DNA from: an uncultured Pseudomonadota bacterium
GTDB lineage: Bacteria > Pseudomonadota > Gammaproteobacteria > Burkholderiales > SG8-39
Direction: 5' to 3'
Assembly: GCA_937907425.1 (NCBI GenBank)
Contig: CALCIE010000024.1
Span: 74,764 to 138,763, forward strand
Length of the DNA stretch: 64,000 bases
Below the pieces are notes generated by a model, which had not been told where the DNA came from, did no database searches, and saw only the letters and a list, made by a program, of their open reading frames with translations. Below are positions 56,425 through 63,054 of this stretch, one piece after another. The position numbers and the translations under genes are program-made. Numbering within the stretch: the stretch's first letter is position 1; each line of letters begins with the position of its first letter.

Positions 56425-56545
56425 GTGCGGCGTCGAAAAATGCACTACGCCGCGGCGCCGGACGTGGCCGGGGCACCGCGGCTTCGATTACCCTTGCGCT
56501 GCGCCTGCGGCGCCAAAACGATAACAATGCCGGGGAGGGAGGGAG

Positions 56546-57220
56546 ATGCCCGAGAACAAGGAACTCGAGTTCCAGGAGAAGTACGACGCGAAGCATTCGC
56601 TCGAGTACTTCAGGAAACATCAACGCGGTCTGCGCCGTCGGCTGACCACGTGGGCGGAACGCCGCATGCTGCGCAAGGCGCTGGCGATGATGGGCGATCC
56701 GGGTTCGGTGCTCGACATCCCCTGCGGCGCCGGACGCTTCTGGACCGTTCTTGCGGAACGTCCCGACCGGCGCATCCTGGCGGCCGATTACAGCGCCGAC
56801 ATGATCGAGACGGCGCGCCGCTTCCAGCCGCCCGAGCTGGTGGCGCGCGTCGAGACCTTCCAGGCCTCGGCTTTCGACATCAAGCTGCCCGATGCGGCGG
56901 TCGAAGCGATCGTCTGCATCCGCCTGATCCACCACATCGGCCAAACCGAAGACCGCCGGCGGATGCTGGCGGAGTTCCATCGCGTGGCGGCGCATACCGT
57001 CTGCCTCAGCTGCTGGGTGGACGGCAATCTGCAGGCGCGCCGGCGCAAGCGGCTCGAAGCGCGGCGCCCCAAACGCAAATACCAGAACCGCTTCGTGTTC
57101 GAGCGCGACACCATCGAACGCGAGCTCCGCGCAGCCGGTTTCGACATCCTCGGGCACATCGATCTGCTGCCGGGCATCTCGATGTGGCGCATGTACGTTC
57201 TGCGGAAGCGCGCCGCATGA
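56546..57220 (+). CDS. class I SAM-dependent methyltransferase
   Basis: Motif I VLDIPCGAGRF, ..ILAADYS.., ..IVCIRLIHHI... Strong SD GGGGAGGGAGGGAG. Its stop overlaps the next ATG. Confidence 0.82.
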   Translation: MPENKELEFQEKYDAKHSLEYFRKHQRGLRRRLTTWAERRMLRKALAMMGDPGSVLDIPCGAGRFWTVLAERPDRRILAADYSADMIETARRFQPPELVARVETFQASAFDIKLPDAAVEAIVCIRLIHHIGQTEDRRRMLAEFHRVAAHTVCLSCWVDGNLQARRRKRLEARRPKRKYQNRFVFERDTIERELRAAGFDILGHIDLLPGISMWRMYVLRKRAA

Positions 57221-58023
57221 GTGCCCTGCTCTATGTGGAGCCGGCCTACCGCGACCGGCTGGACGCTGCCGGATTGCGCAGCTTCGACGATCTGTGGGCG
57301 CTGCCCTGGAACTGGGTGGAAGAACCCAATCAGCGGCGCAGGGGCTGGAGCGGTGCGACCCGCGTCGTGATCGGTGAGAGCGAACCGCTCGCGCTGTTCG
57401 TCAAGCGCCAGGAGAACCACTGTTACCGCTCGCTGGCGCATCCGCTGCGCGGCAAGCCGACCTTCTACCGCGAATGGCGCAACATCAGCGTGCTGCGCGA
57501 GGCCGGTGTGCCCACTTTGGAGCCCATCGCCTACGGCGAGCGCGTCCGTGAAGGCCGTTATCAGGCCGTGCTGATCACCGTGGCGTTCGACGGTTACGTC
57601 GATCTCGACGAGCTGTTCGCGAACCGCGGCGGACTGGACGAGGCGACGCGCAACGCCGTATTGGCAACCCTCGCGCGCAATCTGCTGCGCTTGCACCGCG
57701 CCGGTTGCCGCCATAATTGCCTCGCCGGCAAGCATCTGATGGTGCGCATGGGCGCCGAGCCCGATGTGCGGCTCCTGGATCTGGAGAAGCTGAAGCACCG
57801 GCGTGCCTGGATTGCCGCTGCCGCGCACGATCTGGCGCGGCTCATCCGCTACACGCCGACCCTGTCGCTGGCCGATCATCATCACGTCGTGTACGAATAC
57901 TGCCGCGGGCTCTCGACCGGCGAGGCGCTCAGCCTGGTGGCGCTGATCAATCACAAGCTGAGCCGCAAGAAAGGGGTGCGTTACCGGATTGCCGACCCGC
58001 TCATGTCGTCGGCCGCGGCCTAG
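57217..58023 (+). CDS. lipopolysaccharide kinase (InaA/WaaP/Kdo-kinase) family protein, non-canonical catalytic loop
   Basis: ..RRRGWSGATRV....LFVKRQENH.. ..EWRNISVLREAGVPTLEPIAYGE.. ..LHRAGCRHNCLAGKHLMV.. ..LLDLEK.. is the family layout. The expected HRD-type Asp is not evident. Confidence 0.72.
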   Translation: MSALLYVEPAYRDRLDAAGLRSFDDLWALPWNWVEEPNQRRRGWSGATRVVIGESEPLALFVKRQENHCYRSLAHPLRGKPTFYREWRNISVLREAGVPTLEPIAYGERVREGRYQAVLITVAFDGYVDLDELFANRGGLDEATRNAVLATLARNLLRLHRAGCRHNCLAGKHLMVRMGAEPDVRLLDLEKLKHRRAWIAAAAHDLARLIRYTPTLSLADHHHVVYEYCRGLSTGEALSLVALINHKLSRKKGVRYRIADPLMSSAAA

Positions 58024-59168
58024 AGGGTGTGGAGGCGGTCGCCTGCGCGGAAGGCGCGCAAGGGCTCGTCCAGATCGCGCGTAAAGGCGATGACCTTGAA
58101 GAGTTCGCCCATTTCCGCGGGCGACATCAGCTTGTTGACCGCGGCGGCGGCCGGCAGGTAGCGGGCCGCGTCTTCGGGCGGCGTGCGCAACATCAACTCC
58201 GTGATGCCGAGATTGATGAGCAGTTGCGCCTGGGTGGTATAGCCGGCGATGTCCAGTCCGGCTTCGTGCGCAGCCTCCGCCATCGCGGTGAAGTCCACGT
58301 GCGCGGTGATGTCCTGCAGACCCGGCAGGTAGAAGGGATCGTCGTGCGCGCGATGCCGGTAATGGCACATCAGCGTGCCGGCGCTACGTTGCGGATGGTA
58401 GTACTCCGGACGCGGGAAGCCGTAATCGACGAGCAGGATGGCGCCGCGCTCCAGTACCTCGCCCAGGGTGCGGACGAAGGCACGGGCCGCGAGACCGATT
58501 TCCGTACGGTAACCGACCGGCAGCGCCAGCGCCTCGGCGGCGGCGCGCACTTCGCCTTCAGCCTTGCGCCAGGACCATTGCAGCGCGCGGTCCACGCCCG
58601 CCTGCTCGATGTCGTCCGCGGTGACGCGGATCACCTCCACCGGCATGGCGTCGAGCACCTCGTTGCCGAGGACGAGTCCGCGAAAGGACGGCGGCAGCTG
58701 GTTGAGCCAGGCCACGCGCTCCATCAGATGCGGCACTCGCGCCGCGAGCGTGTCCCGTTCGCGCGCGCGCAGTTCGGGCGAGAGCTCGAGAATGAGATAA
58801 CGCTCCGGCAGGCAGCCGAGACGGTCGAGCTCCTCGAGCACCGCGGCGGCGAGCGCGCCGCTGCCCGCGCCGACTTCGAGGATGTCGGGCAGCCCGGCGG
58901 CGATCAGGTCGCGCGCCTGTTGCGCGAGCGCATGGCCGAACAGCGGCGTCAGTTCGGGCGCGGTCGTGAAATCGCCCTCCCGGCCGAGCTTGCGGCTGCC
59001 GGCCGTGTAATAGCCGAGCCCAGGCGCGTAGAGCGCCAGTTCCATGTAGCGCGAGAAGGGAATCCAGCCGCCTGCCGCGTCGATCGCGCCTTCGATGTGC
59101 TGCCGCAGGCGGTTGCTGTGCGCAAGGGCTTCGGCGGCGGGTTCCGGAAGTCGGTCGTGGCGATGCAT
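58020..59168 (-). CDS. class I SAM-dependent methyltransferase, MidA/NDUFAF7 (DUF185) family
   Basis: ..FSRYMELALYAPGLGYY....GDFTTAPELTPLFG...ILEVGAGSGALA.. ..ILLVDYG.. are signature segments. Confidence 0.88.
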   Translation of the reverse strand: MHRHDRLPEPAAEALAHSNRLRQHIEGAIDAAGGWIPFSRYMELALYAPGLGYYTAGSRKLGREGDFTTAPELTPLFGHALAQQARDLIAAGLPDILEVGAGSGALAAAVLEELDRLGCLPERYLILELSPELRARERDTLAARVPHLMERVAWLNQLPPSFRGLVLGNEVLDAMPVEVIRVTADDIEQAGVDRALQWSWRKAEGEVRAAAEALALPVGYRTEIGLAARAFVRTLGEVLERGAILLVDYGFPRPEYYHPQRSAGTLMCHYRHRAHDDPFYLPGLQDITAHVDFTAMAEAAHEAGLDIAGYTTQAQLLINLGITELMLRTPPEDAARYLPAAAAVNKLMSPAEMGELFKVIAFTRDLDEPLRAFRAGDRLHTL

Positions 59169-59192
59169 GATCGGGCGATGGTGCGCGCCTCC

Positions 59193-59236
59193 GATAGAAT
59201 TATCAATATCCTAAGTAAGTGGACTATGGCGAGGGG
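59193..59236. other. left edge (AT-rich upstream region) of a ~1.3 kb low-GC cassette spanning about 59193-60509
   Basis: Composition drops abruptly right after the MidA start region: gcgcgcctccg | atagaattatcaatatcctaagtaagtgg. Hand-counted 60-nt lines inside the cassette give 47-48% GC versus roughly two-thirds in the flanks. Confidence 0.8.
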
Positions 59237-59986
59237 ATGTCAAAAAGCCTGGCTGGCAAAGTTGTTTTAGTCACGGGTGGCGCAAAACGCGTTGGAGCCG
59301 CTATCGTTCGACGGTTGCATGCCGCTGGTGCGGCGATTATGTTGCATTACAACACAGCGGCCCGAGAAGCAGAAGTTATGCAGTGCGAACTAAACAGTGT
59401 GCGTACCGGGTCGGTAGTCATTACAAAAGCCGATTTGAGAGACATCAGCGCGGTATCGGGGTTGATTGATGCGGTTATGACGCATTTCGGGCGGCTTGAT
59501 GTACTCGTAAATAACGCATCCACGTTTTATCCCACACCGATTGGCCAAATACGCGAAAGTGACTGGGAAAATCTGGTACATGTAAATGTAATGGCGCCGT
59601 TATTTCTATCGCAGGCAGCCAGTGCCGAATTGAAGTCGACTAGCGGCTGTATCATCAATATTGCTGATATCCATGCTGAACGGCCTCTTAAGCGCTATGT
59701 CGTTTACAGTATGGCTAAGGCCGCCTTGGTTGGCCTAACGCGCTCCCTAGCCGTCGAATTAGGCCCCGAGGTTCGGGTAAACGCCGTCGCGCCTGGGCCT
59801 ATCATTTGGCCAGATAATCCCGAATTCAACCCGCTTGAGCGCGACGCCGTCGTGTCCCAAACGTTGCTGAAACGTACTGGTAACCCAGATGAAGTCGCTC
59901 GTACAGTGTTATTTTTAGCTTCAGAAGCAAGCTATATCACTGGTCAGGTAATAAGCGTAGATGGTGGTCGTAATATCAGTTTCTAA
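59237..59986 (+). CDS. pteridine reductase-type short-chain dehydrogenase (FolM-like)
   Basis: ..VVLVTGGAKRVGAAIV.. (TGxxxRxG variant typical of pteridine reductases), ..NNAS.., ..YSMAKAAL.. (YxxxK), ..GPIIWP... Codon usage (AAA, TTA, AAT) is unlike the rest of the window. Confidence 0.8.
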   Translation: MSKSLAGKVVLVTGGAKRVGAAIVRRLHAAGAAIMLHYNTAAREAEVMQCELNSVRTGSVVITKADLRDISAVSGLIDAVMTHFGRLDVLVNNASTFYPTPIGQIRESDWENLVHVNVMAPLFLSQAASAELKSTSGCIINIADIHAERPLKRYVVYSMAKAALVGLTRSLAVELGPEVRVNAVAPGPIIWPDNPEFNPLERDAVVSQTLLKRTGNPDEVARTVLFLASEASYITGQVISVDGGRNISF

Positions 59987-60029
59987 CGCTTATGAAGGGG
60001 TGCGGGTTTGGTAACCAGCAACGCATGAA

Positions 60030-60494
60030 ATGAATAAAAGTGCACCGAATACACCACTAGTGCTTATAGACCGGCTTTATGTAGAAGCGCAGCAATGGGC
60101 GCGGCACTATGAGGCGCTACTTGTAAATACTAACGTTTTTATTGTCACCATCTCGCTGGCATTCTTAGGGATCGCTTTCTCAGATAAAGTGGCCGGCGTA
60201 GTGCGCTCATTGGCGATGATGGTTCCCATTGTTCTGTGCATCGTTGGCCTCGCGTTGGTCTGGACGCTATTTACGTTATACGCGCAGTGCGTAGAGCGTC
60301 TCATTCGATATGAGCGTGCGATGGGATGCTTTGACGAAGAGGTTGGGAATGGGCTCGATGGTGCGGGGTCGCTATTGCCTTTGGAACTTTCAAAGTTGCC
60401 CGTAAAGCGTCCGCCGTCGGTCCATTTTTTCAATTGGACTTACTTAATTTTGTTGGCCGTCTTTTTAACGCTGATGGTTTGGAGTTTGTTTTGA
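60030..60494 (+). CDS. hypothetical 154-aa membrane protein (3 predicted TM helices), low GC
   Basis: Hydrophobic stretches VFIVTISLAFLGIAF, MMVPIVLCIVGLALVWTLFTLY and WTYLILLAVFLTLMVWSLF. No family recognised. Same atypical composition as the preceding gene. Confidence 0.55.
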   Translation: MNKSAPNTPLVLIDRLYVEAQQWARHYEALLVNTNVFIVTISLAFLGIAFSDKVAGVVRSLAMMVPIVLCIVGLALVWTLFTLYAQCVERLIRYERAMGCFDEEVGNGLDGAGSLLPLELSKLPVKRPPSVHFFNWTYLILLAVFLTLMVWSLF

Positions 60495-60509
60495 GTGAGG
60501 TTGAGTAGG

Positions 60510-61415
60510 ATGGCCGCTGTTGGCCGTTCCGCTGTGCTGACGCAGAAGGCCGCCTACGAGGCCAACAAACTGCAGAAGCGTCTGCGCCGCCTCGTCGGCC
60601 AGGCGATCGCCGACTACGACATGATCCGTGCCGGCGATCGCGTCATGGTGTGCCTGTCCGGCGGCAAGGACAGTTACGGGCTGCTCGACATCCTCATGCG
60701 GCTGCGCGAGCACGCGCCGCTGGATTTCGAGATCGTGGCCGTCAATCTGGACCAGCGCCAGCCGGGTTTCCCCGAGCACGTGCTGCCCGATTACCTGCGT
60801 TCGCTGGGCATTCCCTTCCACATCGAGGTGCAGGACACCTACAGCATCGTCAAACGGGTGATCCCCGAAGGCAAGACGATGTGCTCGCTGTGCTCGCGGC
60901 TGCGCCGCGGCGTGCTCTACCGGGTGGCGGGCGAACTGGGCGCGACCAAGATCGCGCTGGGCCATCACCGCGACGACATCCTGGAGACCTTTTTCCTCAA
61001 CCTGTTCTTCGGCGGCAAGCTGAAGGCCATGCCGCCCAAGCTGGTGTCGGACGACGGCCGTCATGTGGTGATCCGCCCCCTCGCCTACGTCAGGGAGCGC
61101 GATCTCGAGGCCTATGCCGCGGTGCGCGGTTTTCCGATCATCCCGTGCAACCTGTGCGGCTCGCAGGAGAATCTGCAGCGCACCCAGGTCAAGATGATGC
61201 TGCGGGAGTGGGAGAAGCGTTTTCCCGGGCGTGTCGAGACCATCTTCCGCAGCCTGGCGGACGTCCGCCCCTCGCATCTGCTCGACCGGAAGCTGTTCGA
61301 TTTCGCCGCCGTGGCGGCGACCGGCGTGGCATGGGCCGAGGGCGACAGGGCGTTCGACCAGGACGAGTTCCCGCCGCCCGTGGCTATCCCATTGATCGAG
61401 CGGGATTCCTCTTAA
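60510..61415 (+). CDS. ttcA: tRNA 2-thiocytidine(32) synthetase
   Basis: ..[15 protein letters not shown].. PP-loop, ..[10 protein letters not shown].. and ..CNLCGSQ.. cysteine motifs. ATG 60510 sits where GC content returns to host level; the track ORF starts at GTG 60495. Confidence 0.93.
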
Positions 61416-61433
61416 AGACCTGTAGAATTTTAC

Positions 61434-61462
61434 TTGTCAAATTCATCTTGATGCGGCAAACT
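61434..61462 (+). promoter_or_regulatory. weak candidate promoter (TTGTCA-17 nt-CAAACT)
   Basis: AT-rich patch downstream of ttcA; near-consensus -35, poor -10. Inspection only. Confidence 0.25.
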
Positions 61463-61533
61463 CGCGCATTGCTCACCGACCGCGCCGCGCTCGACCGGGC
61501 CCGGTCCGGCGGGCGAGCGAGTCCCAGCCCCGT

Positions 61534-61800
61534 ATGAACTGCGCTGAACGTCTAGTCGCTCTGTTTGGCAGCCAGGCCGAAGTGGCCCGGCGACTCAAGC
61601 TCGACCGCGCCGTCGTCAACAACTGGGTCAAGTCCGGCTACGTCCCTTCGCGTTGGGCGATGGAAATCGAGCGCCTCACCGAGGGGCAGATCGCCGCAGT
61701 CGAAGTCCTCAACGAAGCCAACGCGCGCAAGCCCATCCGCGTCAAATCGCGTGGCGAGGAAGACAGTCTTTTCGGACCTACGTTCGTAGGAAGTGACATC
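61534..61800 (+). other. YdaS/Cro-like helix-turn-helix coding segment, open in-frame into the downstream aminotransferase (no intervening stop)
   Basis: MNCAERLVALFGSQAEVARRLKLDRAVVNNWVKSGYVPSRWAMEIERLTEGQI.. aligns by eye with E. coli YdaS (..VGGQSAMARLLGVSPPSVNQWIKG..PAERCPAIERATRGEV..). No obvious SD precedes ATG 61534. Confidence 0.5.
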
Positions 61801-63054
61801 ATGAATCCTTACGCGCCTCCCAAGCGCATCAAATCCTTCCATCCACCCCAGCGTGCCCTGTTGGGCCCGGGGCCGTCGGAGATCAACCCGCGCGTCATGG
61901 CCGCCATGGGGCTGCCGGCGATCGGTTATCTCGACCCGGCCTTCGTCGAGATGATGGAAGACCTGAAGGCGCTGCTGCGCTACGCCTTCCAGACGAAGAA
62001 CGCCCTCACCTTCCCGATTTCCGGGCCGGGCTCGGTGGGCATGGAATACTGCTTCGTCAACATGGTGGCGCCCGGCGATACCGTGATCGTGATGCGCAAC
62101 GGTGTGTTCGGCGGGCGCATGATCGAGAACGTGGAGCGCTGCGGGGCCAAGCCGGTCGTGGTCGAGGACGAATGGGGCGAGCCCTGCGACCCGAACAAGC
62201 TGGAGGACGCGCTCAAGAAGCATCCCGAAGCGCGCGTCGTGGCCTTCGTGCACGCGGAGACCTCCACCGGCGTGGAGTCGGACGCCAAGACCCTCATCGA
62301 AGTGGCGCACAAGTACGACGCGCTCACCATCATGGACGCCGTCACCTCGCTGGGCGGCTCGCCGGTGCTGGTGGACGAATGGCAGTGCGATGCCGTGTAT
62401 TCGGCCAGCCAGAAATGCCTGTCCTGCACGCCGGGCCTGTCGCCGGTGACCTTCAGCGACCGCGTGGTCGACTACGTCAAGTCGCGCAAGGACAAGATCC
62501 ACAGCTGGTTCATGGACATGAACCTGCTGCTCGGCTACTGGGGCAGCACCACCCGCACTTATCACCATACCGCGCCCACCAACAGCCTCTACGCGCTGCA
62601 CGAAGCGCTGCTGATCCTCAAGGAGGAAGGCATCGAGAACGCCTGGGCGCGGCATCAGCGCCACCATACCGCGCTGAAAGCGGGTCTGGAGGCGATGGGC
62701 CTGAAGTATCTGGTGAAGGAAGGCTATCGCCTGCCGCAGATGAACGCGATCCTCATCCCCGAGCCCCTGCTCGAGCATGAGGCGGAAGTGCGCAAGCGGC
62801 TGCTCAACGAGTTCAACCTCGAGATCGGCGCCGGCCTCGGTCCGCTCGCCGGCAAGATCTGGCGCATCGGCATCATGGGCTATTCCTGCAACTCGCAGAA
62901 CGTCATGCTGTGCCTGTCGGCGCTCGGTTCGGTGCTCTACGACATGGGTTACCCGATCCACGTCGGCGACGCCGAAAGCGCGGCGCATCAGGCCTACGCG
63001 CAGATGCACGCCAAGGCCGCCCAGCAAAAGAAGCGTCAGCCCGCGGCCGCCTGA
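61801..63054 (+). CDS. class-V PLP aminotransferase (alanine-glyoxylate / serine-pyruvate aminotransferase family)
   Basis: MNPYAPPKRIKSFHPPQRALLGPGPSEINPRVMAAM.. ..FVHAETSTGV.. ..SASQKCLSCTPGLSPV.. (PLP lysine in SxSQK). ATG 61801 is preceded by AGGAAG; the maximal ORF starts at 61534. Confidence 0.88.
   Translation: MNPYAPPKRIKSFHPPQRALLGPGPSEINPRVMAAMGLPAIGYLDPAFVEMMEDLKALLRYAFQTKNALTFPISGPGSVGMEYCFVNMVAPGDTVIVMRNGVFGGRMIENVERCGAKPVVVEDEWGEPCDPNKLEDALKKHPEARVVAFVHAETSTGVESDAKTLIEVAHKYDALTIMDAVTSLGGSPVLVDEWQCDAVYSASQKCLSCTPGLSPVTFSDRVVDYVKSRKDKIHSWFMDMNLLLGYWGSTTRTYHHTAPTNSLYALHEALLILKEEGIENAWARHQRHHTALKAGLEAMGLKYLVKEGYRLPQMNAILIPEPLLEHEAEVRKRLLNEFNLEIGAGLGPLAGKIWRIGIMGYSCNSQNVMLCLSALGSVLYDMGYPIHVGDAESAAHQAYAQMHAKAAQQKKRQPAAA

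Follow-up and report, generated by a model that had tools for sequence, protein, structure and literature searches.

A sharply bounded low-GC reductase–membrane protein gene pair between a MidA-family gene and ttcA as a probable in-place replacement in a GC-rich genome

The window analysed here is a 64-kb stretch of DNA (64,000 nucleotides) from an uncultured Burkholderiales bacterium. At its positions 59193-60509, a gene for a pteridine reductase and a gene for a predicted membrane protein, referred to as TM154, form a two-gene cassette located between a divergently oriented MidA-family methyltransferase gene and ttcA. The features of this region are listed below, with L022 and L024 denoting related lineages that carry the same locus.

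58020..59168, minus strand: MidA-family methyltransferase gene, native left flank, divergent from the cassette (PF02636, E = 2.9e-58)
59178..59201, plus strand: conserved intergenic block ATGGTGCGCGCCTCCGATAGAATT, putative promoter of the SDR operon and proposed left crossover (23 of 24 positions identical to L022 and L024)
59195-59200, plus strand: -10-like TAGAAT inside the conserved intergenic block
59202..59236, plus strand: AT-shifted 5′ UTR with the ribosome-binding site GAGGGG before the SDR start codon (GC 0.46)
59237..59986, plus strand: pteridine reductase (FolM/PTR1-type SDR), 249 aa (NF006598, 357.7 bits against a cut-off of 288)
59987..60029, plus strand: spacer between the SDR gene and TM154 (GC 0.535)
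60030..60494, plus strand: TM154, 154 aa, three predicted transmembrane helices (hydropathy and AlphaFold model; GC3 0.54)
60510..61415, plus strand: ttcA (tRNA 2-thiocytidine-32 synthetase), native right flank and last gene of the SDR-TM154-ttcA operon (NF007972)
60510..60541, plus strand: first 11 codons of ttcA, possible last donor-derived piece (non-homologous to the L022/L024 N-terminus)
60542..60580, plus strand: first highly conserved ttcA block (13 residues), proposed right crossover (38-39 of 39 nt identical to L024 and L022)
59023..61048, no strand: tract almost without strain polymorphism (one segregating site, 60269)

An earlier reading of the sequence alone had placed a pteridine-reductase-type SDR and a 154-aa protein with three transmembrane segments between MidA and ttcA, and profile searches and hydropathy analysis bear out this gene content. 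The reductase lies above the NF006598/PRK09135 equivalog cut-off, with a match spanning residues 12-254 of the 255-aa ORF. Like other FolM/PTR1-type reductases, it possesses the Rossmann and YxxxK motifs and, with 249 aa, the length of its orthologs, and the SDR cofactor and catalytic motifs TGGAKRVG, NNAS and YSMAK are aligned with theirs. It presumably supplies the FolM-type function, that is, the NADPH-dependent reduction of dihydropterins, e.g., dihydromonapterin. Enzymes of this type are reported to act as dihydromonapterin reductase, to provide phenylalanine hydroxylase with its cofactor and, in Burkholderia, to be linked to sulfamethoxazole resistance (PMC5587915). Within the 120 closest homologs, no other protein is as AT-skewed as that of the window, which shows the lowest GARP fraction among these 120 best matches, and the amino-acid changes private to it are AT-directed. 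The downstream gene scores 481.7 bits on NF007972, where the equivalog cut-off is 272, which identifies it as ttcA. No second copy of either the reductase or TM154 was found within the window.

For TM154, hydropathy analysis revealed three hydrophobic segments, and the AlphaFold model (pLDDT 72.7) predicts helices at residues 8-49, 56-98 and 129-153. Conserved motifs are situated at the N-terminus (LY-EAQ-W-RHYE) and after TM2 (IER-IR-E-LGC-D). Profile searches in Pfam, NCBIfam, PADLOC, PHROGs and PDB sequences gave no significant match, only sub-threshold chance hits such as UNC-50 (18.3 bits compared with a cut-off of 22.1), and Foldseek comparison of the model with the PDB returned generic helical bundles only (E ≥ 0.57). 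Homologs amount to 35 cluster representatives at E < 1e-3 among 1.84 billion proteins, the best non-self match sharing 66% identity. The comparison with the copy in lineage L029 yielded a pN of 0.25 against a pS of 0.74, which indicates purifying selection. The genomic contexts of TM154 differ among carriers, some of them being low-GC islands, and the copies of Gallionella and Paucibacter are 81% identical. Judged by its occurrence across genomes, TM154 appears to be a patchy, mobile accessory family. Since about half of the examined TM154 loci adjoin pterin-reductase-type SDR/ttcA clusters, it is probably an accessory inner-membrane protein with a role linked to pterin metabolism or to ttcA. 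As a side observation, TM154 is overlooked in most contigs by gene callers that were trained on the GC-rich host, and one contig has the reductase called on the wrong strand.

The segment 59193-60509 has a GC fraction of 0.496, compared with 0.667 for the remainder of the window. It represents the lowest 1317-nt stretch of the window, 10.2 standard deviations under the other windows (z = -10.2; 92 windows of the same size with a mean GC of 0.6665, an sd of 0.0168 and a minimum of 0.618), and no second 400-nt window with a GC below 0.56 occurs anywhere in the 64 kb. In steps of 20 nt, GC falls from 0.65 to 0.25 at 59200 on the left edge and is at least 0.6 again from 60500 onward on the right. 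The same pattern was observed for GC3 in bins of 25 codons, which ranges from 0.76 to 0.96 in MidA, from 0.24 to 0.60 in the SDR gene, from 0.40 to 0.64 in TM154 and again from 0.76 to 0.96 in ttcA (whole-gene values of 0.85, 0.49, 0.54 and 0.87, respectively). Of the 405 cassette codons, 20 are TTA, CTA or ATA (9, 8 and 3, respectively), whereas none of the three occurs in 2,425 flanking codons. The sharp low-GC segment and the foreign codon usage claimed by the sequence-only reading are thus both confirmed: the computed profile deviates significantly (z = -10), and this is the sole such dip in 64 kb.

At the first, second and third codon positions, GC is 0.59/0.45/0.49 in the SDR gene and 0.54/0.37/0.55 in TM154, compared with 0.70-0.72/0.45-0.47/0.76-0.94 in the reductases of the relatives. 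For the Salmonella genome, at about 52% G+C, the Lawrence-Ochman expectation amounts to 59/41/56 (PMC2394748). At all three positions, the composition of the window reductase fits a genome of about 50% GC. Moreover, the AT shift extends to the 5′ UTR and the spacer, so the low GC belongs to the DNA tract and not to codon selection. The amelioration of acquired DNA has been described (PMC2394748), and the cassette GC3 is without a sign of it, which suggests that the cassette would have arrived recently relative to the split from L022/L024.

The locus was then compared among related lineages. In L022/L023, L024/L025 (GCA_035305705.1) and L026, the order is MidA (minus strand), SDR and ttcA, the reductase has native GC (GC3 of 0.76-0.94), and TM154 is absent in all of them. 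In L022-L025, ttcA begins 13 nt past the SDR stop, while two native-GC genes are inserted between SDR and ttcA in L026 and 3.5 kb lie between them in L018. The surroundings are shared to a large extent: a downstream aminotransferase gene is common to L022/L023, L024/L025 and L026 wherever the contig extends that far, the carbamoyltransferase and Kdo genes upstream are common to L022-L025, and the downstream Zip gene to L024/L025. It had been proposed beforehand that, if relatives carry a native high-GC reductase at this position, the segment would be a xenologous replacement that brought an extra membrane gene with it. Three lineages fit this expectation, without TM154, and the closest available relatives lack the low-GC segment in the MidA-ttcA interval. 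Most likely, the segment is a swap of the resident reductase gene for an imported version plus one extra gene.

The divergence of the reductase points in the same direction. Compared with the syntenic orthologs of the relatives, it shows 63-67% amino-acid identity, a dN of 0.28-0.32 and a pS of 0.79-0.82, whereas the flanks share 79-91% identity with the same relatives (MidA 79-80%, ttcA 84-90%, carbamoyltransferase 90%) at a dN of 0.06-0.15 and a pS of 0.45-0.55. Among the relatives themselves, the dN of the SDR is similar to that of MidA; on these figures, the window reductase is over-diverged for its position. In neighbour-joining analysis, it forms a long branch inside the host's clade, with 40% of the bootstrap replicates making it the sister of the L022/L024 clade and 38% placing it at the base of the whole clade, and its best non-self match (67%) is the syntenic ortholog in the host's own relative. 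As the gene falls either within the host's own clade or at its base, the donor, if any, would be a relative and not a distant organism. The tree by itself thus gives no demonstration of xenology.

Detailed analysis of the borders showed that the low-GC sequence begins directly after the conserved block 59178-59201, which is recognisable in L026 too and is likely the promoter of the SDR operon. A consensus scan found no full sigma-70 match at this block and no convincing promoter or terminator consensus, the spacer 59987..60029 itself contains no terminator-like site, and an Rfam scan of 57.5-62 kb found no RNA family. The 5′ UTR can be aligned to that of L024/L022 with G/C-to-A/T differences, the counterpart in the relatives being visibly G+C-rich. 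At the other end, the 47 nt from the TM154 stop to the conserved ttcA block (60495-60541) have an intermediate GC of 0.62 over a length too short to assign. Donor DNA may reach through the first 11 codons of ttcA, and host-like composition and homology resume at 60542. The two short conserved blocks that bracket the AT-rich tract could have served as crossover sites.

We therefore consider it probable that about 1.34 kb of horizontally acquired DNA (59202 to ~60541) replaced the resident reductase in place and brought TM154 along, by homologous recombination with an unsampled lower-GC relative. The ancestral Burkholderiales state would have been a promoter followed by the pteridine reductase and ttcA, divergent from MidA, which is still present in three related lineages. 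We infer a related, unsampled donor bacterium with a GC content of about 47-52% and an operon version in which reductase, TM154 and ttcA followed each other. Its DNA would have recombined into the chromosome at the nearest conserved blocks (59178-59201 and 60542-60580), with mobile-element machinery playing no part in the import, and the outcome would be an intact three-gene operon under the native promoter. A search of 5.8 billion proteins, 185,579 species genomes and the JGI metagenomes retrieved no donor or near-donor. The 62% GC of the 47 nt before the conserved ttcA block exceeds the donor expectation and speaks against import, although this stretch is too short to weigh.

Two other origins of the segment appear far less plausible. 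Delivery by a classical mobile element (integron cassette, IS/MITE-borne passenger, phage moron or integrative islet) would agree with a small, compositionally foreign and sharply bounded tract, and with an SDR-ttcA junction that is variable, as seen from the extra DNA in L026 and L018. However, the scan for flanking repeats found chance-level 10-12-mers only and no terminal inverted or direct repeats above chance, no attC-like palindrome is present at the 3′ end of the cassette, and no integrase, transposase or tRNA gene lies within about 10 kb. Searches of 72,556 plasmids and 50,697 phages with TM154 (tblastn) and with the cassette (blastn) gave no homolog, and matches in PHROGs or PADLOC are likewise lacking. 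In addition, the resident gene was replaced rather than added to, and the native promoter block was kept, which makes such an element very improbable. These results agree with the initial claims that flanking repeats, integrase and transposase are absent and that a lower-GC donor contributed the segment through homologous recombination, the latter being further supported by the conserved bracketing blocks. A 19-nt inverted repeat at 58878/60677 was dismissed, as it stems from the similar peptides GLPDIL and GLLDIL on opposite strands. As for an assembly or binning chimera, in which a high-GC contig took in reads from a lower-GC organism, it might be suspected given that the host is known only from metagenomes and that most contigs have TM154 skipped by gene callers. 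In contrast, the same arrangement with identical junctions was found in at least 18 contigs of independent assemblies, which differ in samples and assemblers (JGI, MGnify/ENA, Logan) and some of which are 72-327 kb long; the operon structure is also coherent and the UTR aligns with the relatives. A chimera is thus next to impossible, and the segment is not an assembly artefact.

The strain-level data cover 11 contigs, which contain 102 segregating sites over 49-64 kb, and only one of these sites lies within 59023..61048. Every strain-level contig contains the cassette, which hardly varies among them (one SNP), and no cassette-free strain of the same species was found among the contigs carrying an identical MidA. 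The low polymorphism of this 2-kb tract is a weak hint at recent spread. Its use as proof of a recent sweep was rejected, as the SNPs are strongly clustered over the whole 15 kb.

The low-GC pair is also found outside the window. TM154 subfamily 1 is known from four lineages (window, L029/L001, L002 and L036), all of which possess the order SDR-TM154-ttcA with both cassette genes at a GC3 of 0.49-0.62, between flanks of about 0.77-0.87 (0.72 for a 49-codon tcdA fragment in L002). The GC3 of the pair is lowered by 0.17-0.37, and the shift falls at the gene boundaries in each lineage. In subfamily 2, GC3 mostly follows the host, with L018 and L032 as outliers; the GC-poor counts of 4/4 and 2/11 correspond to a hand-calculated Fisher p of ~0.01. 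The SDRs of the four modules are not monophyletic, each falling within the clade of its own host, though their TM154s form one subfamily. The L029 SDR shares 72% identity with TM-less relatives and its flanks 61-76%, so that this SDR is no more diverged than its surroundings, and the GARP values of the L029, L002 and L036 SDRs (0.356-0.363, background 0.362) represent an ordinary high-GC-type composition. In L029 and L036, TM154 and ttcA overlap as ATGA. A signature shared by the TM154-linked reductases was not obtained, with no column common to all four and three weak columns in three of the four; hidden common origin and convergent adaptation were therefore both rejected. A codon-position argument of "reverse amelioration" for L029, L002 and L036 was dropped, as the GC1-GC3 relationship specific to the family has too shallow and uncertain a slope.

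The import model leaves the recurrence of a GC-poor pair in four lineages unexplained, and four separate imports from unseen lower-GC relatives, without any sampled native carrier, are not a parsimonious solution. An alternative is an AT shift in situ, in which SDR-TM154-ttcA is an old arrangement that was lost in most lineages, the retained pair was held at or drifted to low GC, and the window reductase is a native ortholog whose branch was accelerated and AT-driven. The cause could be selection favouring AT-rich DNA or weak expression (silencer binding, slow translation of the membrane protein), or a divergent allele that escapes GC-biased gene conversion because it is unable to recombine. 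The excess of GC-poor pairs in subfamily 1, the polyphyletic, host-local SDRs beside a single TM154 subfamily, the ordinary GARP of the other three SDRs together with the normal divergence of that of L029, an ATGA overlap resembling those of long-established operons, a reductase tree compatible with the species position and a donor missing from the databases searched all favour this alternative. It is nevertheless hard to reconcile with the shape of the tract, as no known mechanism brings about a drop in GC of 17 points that is confined to exactly 1.3 kb, has edges of a few bases and takes in the UTR and the spacer yet spares the co-transcribed ttcA. A pS of ~0.8 and a GC1 drop of 0.12, set against a flank pS of ~0.5, would need a several-fold local rate increase, and the three closest relatives, all of them TM154-free, would need repeated precise losses that restored the 13-nt junction. 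Furthermore, L018 contains a GC-poor TM154 only, next to a native SDR, the TM154 similarities (66% for window-L029, 53% for L029-L002) are incongruent with those of the SDR and the flanks, and the subfamily-2 copies mostly match host GC, so the family is not intrinsically AT-rich. Combined, we regard the in-situ shift as possible, if on the unlikely side, and prefer replacement by imported DNA. That the low GC of the reductase-TM154 pair is a maintained property and not a mark of recent transfer seems unlikely to us; if true, core-like genes of GC-rich genomes would be kept AT-rich locally, possibly through selection on the DNA or mRNA, such as control of the ttcA operon by silencers or by the rate of translation, or through escape from GC-biased gene conversion.

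The replacement of a resident operon gene at the same position by a horizontally acquired version is termed xenologous gene displacement in situ (PMC1274311). In line with this type of event, the window reductase occupies the exact ancestral operon position with flanks and promoter kept, and the evidence is compositional and comparative. The differences are that the apparent donor belongs to the same betaproteobacterial clade and not to a distant taxon, which explains a gene tree without clear incongruence, and that an extra gene came too. The underlying concept of displacement "in situ in mosaic operons" was reportedly introduced by Omelchenko et al. in 2003. The present case is a further example of a known event type, most likely the ordinary replacement of a gene by an imported one.

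Pneumococcal capsule loci between dexB and aliA, as well as O-antigen loci, are switched by homologous recombination in conserved flanks. Similarly, the heterologous DNA of the window lies between conserved sequences without mobility genes, and the crossovers are placed, by inference, in the nearest conserved blocks. In contrast to those loci, the tract is tiny (1.3 kb, two genes), its anchors are 24 and 39 nt of near-identity, and no alternative alleles were seen within the species of the window. Recently acquired or accessory DNA is generally AT-richer than its host genome, and AT-rich accessory or acquired genes in GC-rich genomes were reportedly treated by Daubin et al. in 2003. The cassette resembles such AT-rich islets in its low GC, its use of rare codons, the patchy distribution of TM154 and the genes missed by callers, but differs from them in that it includes a housekeeping-type enzyme gene and that four separate lineages have the same two-gene module, GC-poor in each, at this position of the operon.

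The locus offers a textbook-like case in which a housekeeping-type gene was probably exchanged in place, apparently without a mobile element, and with an uncharacterised membrane gene alongside. TM154 represents an unnamed, rare membrane-protein family tied to pterin-reductase/ttcA loci of Betaproteobacteria, and these loci provide an entry point for assigning its function. The GC-poor module in four lineages may also serve as a small test case of whether AT-rich, "foreign-looking" DNA always means recent transfer. On the practical side, tracts of this kind call for caution in annotation, since gene callers trained on a GC-rich host can miss or misplace the genes within them.

The cassette at window positions 59193-60509 had been described in the sequence-only reading as a pteridine reductase and a three-helix 154-aa ORF without a family (TM154), placed between a divergent MidA gene and ttcA. 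Our annotation recovered the same gene content:

58020-59168, minus strand: MidA (PF02636), GC3 0.85
59237-59986: pteridine reductase (SDR; NF006598, 357.7 bits, cut-off 288), GC3 0.49
60030-60494: TM154, matching no family, GC3 0.54
60510-61415: ttcA (NF007972, 481.7 bits, cut-off 272), GC3 0.87

The dip in composition is genuine and extreme. The GC content is 49.6% in the cassette compared with 66.7% in the remaining window, 10.2 standard deviations under 92 other equal-length windows, and the sharp ends seen earlier are reproduced, as GC falls over ~20 nt both at 59200 and at 60495-60510. In the sliding GC profile proposed as a check, the cassette is the sole 400-nt window position under 56% GC in 64 kb. 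The A/T-ending codons regarded as foreign are equally distinctive, with TTA, CTA and ATA used 20 times in the cassette and never in 2,425 flanking codons.

The cofactor and catalytic motifs of the window's reductase are intact, and it is probably a FolM/PTR1-type enzyme, transcribed in a putative operon of promoter, reductase, TM154 and ttcA. In Burkholderia and other bacteria, FolM converts dihydromonapterin to the tetrahydro form used by phenylalanine hydroxylase (PMC5587915). Downstream of ttcA, a class-V aminotransferase (61534-63054) has a Cro/YdaS-like helix-turn-helix domain (PF15943, PF14549) at its N terminus, a fusion also kept in the related lineages L024 and L026.

Among database matches of the reductase, identity jumps from 100% to 67%, where the best hits are syntenic genes of the host's relatives. 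The order carbamoyltransferase, Kdo kinase, MidA(-), SDR and ttcA is found in both L022/L023 (from a Logan assembly) and L024/L025 (the Burkholderiales MAG GCA_035305705.1), and in L024/L025 the aminotransferase and Zip follow downstream. The third lineage, L026, has MidA(-), SDR, ttcA and the aminotransferase in common with the window, with different upstream neighbours. As anticipated for a xenologous replacement, all three possess a reductase of local GC (GC3 0.76-0.94) at the same position, and TM154 is present in none of them. The reductase stop codon is separated from the ttcA start by 13 nt in L022-L025. In L026 (6764-7815), two extra native-GC genes (an ABM monooxygenase and a DUF2272 protein) lie between reductase and ttcA, and this junction seems to tolerate insertions.

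Alignment with these relatives delimits the divergent DNA. On the left, the 24-nt block ATGGTGCGCGCCTCCGATAGAATT (59178-59201) in the MidA-reductase intergenic region matches L022 and L024 at 23/24 positions, is recognisable in L026, and has a -10-like TAGAAT at its end. The AT-rich sequence begins one base past this block, and the 35-nt leader (GC 0.46) is still alignable with the relatives' leader, showing G/C to A/T differences. On the right, codons 1-11 of ttcA are unrelated to their L022/L024 counterparts, and homology and host composition return at 60542 with the first conserved ttcA stretch (38-39/39 nt identical). The two nearest conserved blocks therefore bracket a divergent tract of 1,340 nt (59202 to about 60541, GC 0.50), the pattern expected of replacement by homologous recombination; the donor would then have shared the promoter block and operon, and hence would have been a relative. 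An exact 10-nt direct repeat, TGTTGGCCGT (60451-60460 and 60518-60527), flanks the TM154/ttcA junction in a position suggestive of a microhomology junction, repeats of that size being expected by chance across the region. A 19-nt inverted repeat (95% complementary; 58878-58896 and 60677-60695) on either side of the cassette is probably coincidental, since MidA (minus strand) and ttcA use the same codons to encode the similar peptides GLPDIL and GLLDIL, respectively.

Compared with L022/L024/L026, the reductase is 63-67% identical at the amino acid level (dN 0.28-0.32, pS 0.79-0.82), while the flanks show dN of 0.06-0.22 and pS of 0.45-0.55. Identities are 70-80% for MidA (79-80% to L022/L024), 82-90% for ttcA and 90% for the carbamoyltransferase. 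When the relatives are compared with one another, reductase and MidA evolve at similar rates. GC1/2/3 of the window's reductase is 0.59/0.45/0.49 versus 0.70-0.72/0.45-0.47/0.76-0.94 in its orthologs, its Gly+Ala+Arg+Pro fraction is the lowest among the 120 closest homologs, and its private amino-acid changes are towards AT-encoded residues. The codon-position values agree with the Lawrence-Ochman relations at a genomic GC close to 50%; the figures expected for Salmonella (about 52% G+C) are 59/41/56 (quoted in PMC2394748). Given this divergence, codon-position GC and residue bias, the reductase looks like a long-term resident of a ~50% GC genome in which amelioration has not yet begun to show.

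The TM154 ORF encodes three hydrophobic helices and no membership in described protein families was found, in line with its earlier designation as unrecognised. A pN of 0.25 versus a pS of 0.74 against its closest homolog, L029, indicates a real gene. Out of 1.84 billion proteins, an exhaustive profile search retrieved only 35 cluster representatives. Scanning 185,579 species genomes plus JGI metagenomes for sequence patterns located about 15 loci. Around half of these adjoin a pterin-reductase-type SDR, often together with a FolB-domain protein and ttcA (the window, L029, L002, L036, Chitinilyticum L018, Paucibacter L013, Roseateles L019 and L033). Other copies lie in low-GC islands (L030 and Gallionella, the latter in a low-GC stretch beside a transposase-like fragment) or after the RNase G gene in Pusillimonas (L015 363-2307, L017 895-2839), where the homolog starts one base past the RNase G (NF008689) stop, an operon context with no relation to pterin genes. 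TM154 is probably a small protein of the inner membrane, in which an amphipathic helix at the N terminus and another helix following TM2 are conserved; the repeated neighbourhood suggests a role linked to pterin metabolism or ttcA, and supports nothing more specific. The TM154 proteins of a Gallionella MAG (L020 1248-1730) and a Paucibacter sp. (L016 9956-10438) are 81% identical, which, between distantly related genera, points to probable lateral movement of the family.

In subfamily 2 of TM154, GC3 follows host GC in most loci, with L018 and L032 as clear outliers. In L018 (9956-10432; the cultured isolate Chitinilyticum litopenaei DSM 21440), the order is MidA(-), reductase and TM154, with ttcA 3.5 kb further along; the flanks and the reductase are native (GC3 of the reductase 0.81), and only TM154, at GC3 0.51-0.54, is GC-poor. 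This strain could serve for TM154 experiments. The distinct subfamily 1 is known from only four lineages, the window's and three other GC-rich ones, and 4/4 combine the order reductase-TM154-ttcA with GC3-poor copies of both genes, the shift sitting at gene boundaries in each.

GC3 in the four lineages carrying subfamily-1 TM154
Window: SDR 0.49, TM154 0.54, flank 0.86
L029/L001 (L029 2769-3998; L001 736-1971): SDR 0.56, TM154 0.57, flank 0.87
L002 (145-1373): SDR 0.62, TM154 0.57, flank about 0.86
L036 (592-1826): SDR 0.59, TM154 0.61, flank 0.77

This recurrence of the GC-poor module, which the import model leaves unexplained, is the one aspect worth pursuing. The Rhodocyclaceae-like L034/L035, nearest to L029, lack TM154 and show the order tcdA-reductase-ttcA, the reductase having native GC. 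The L029 reductase is not over-diverged from theirs (72% identical versus 61-76% for flanks). The four reductases linked to TM154 are scattered in the NJ tree, each inside its host's clade on a longish branch, and no diagnostic residues are common to them. The window's reductase is sister to L022/L024 in 40% of bootstraps, basal to the whole clade in 38%, and joins L029/L002 in <3%. Because of these split bootstraps and the lack of grouping, phylogeny neither proves nor excludes xenology.

Import by homologous recombination from a lower-GC donor was proposed from the sequence and, although not proven, is still the best explanation given the tract edges, the relatives and the reductase divergence; we consider it probable. 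The AT shift affects a contiguous DNA tract including non-coding parts and stops at conserved blocks, and composition is at equilibrium in each of the three codon positions. It goes together with the acquisition of a gene absent from the three closest relatives, and synonymous divergence far exceeds that of the flanks. The main rival, a resident reductase-TM154 module whose AT-richness was maintained or drifted in situ, draws on the recurrence in four lineages, reductases locally related to their hosts, TM154/ttcA junctions overlapping as ATGA in L029 and L036, and the failure to find a donor. Attributing the 4/4 pattern to four independent imports from never-sampled lower-GC relatives is indeed uncomfortable. 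No known local process would yield an AT shift like that of the window's tract yet spare the co-transcribed ttcA, and we regard in situ AT-richness as rather unlikely.

Delivery by a classical mobile element is poorly supported and very improbable: searches around the cassette confirmed that flanking repeats above chance, integrase and transposase genes are lacking, and detected neither tRNA genes nor Rfam families, nor any homolog of the cassette on plasmids or phages. An assembly chimera, also poorly supported, has a negligible chance, since the same arrangement recurs in at least 18 contigs, independently assembled from compost-type enrichment metagenomes; the host is an uncultured Pseudomonadota MAG, and PZN01025.1 is a near-identical (>=90%) MidA. 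The cassette adds a new example to a known kind of event, in situ xenologous displacement or the small AT-rich islet.

Gene callers skipped TM154 in 9/10 contigs of the window's species, leaving a gap between the SDR and ttcA calls in L003-L011 (e.g., L003 10751-11273), and in L001 (838-1479) a spurious minus-strand ORF was called instead of the low-GC reductase. Because they are missed in this way, AT-rich genes of GC-rich metagenomic contigs are under-represented in protein databases.

Contigs carrying the identical MidA included no cassette-free strain. Over 15 kb, about 11 strain-level contigs (99.2-99.99% identical) show 102 segregating sites, of which a single one falls within 59023-61048. 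Such near-invariance would fit a cassette that spread recently together with short native flanks, but is given little weight because polymorphism is clustered everywhere. The clusters, with 35 sites at 56500-58000, 18 at 61049-61500 and long stretches nearly without, are typical of recombination imports within the population.
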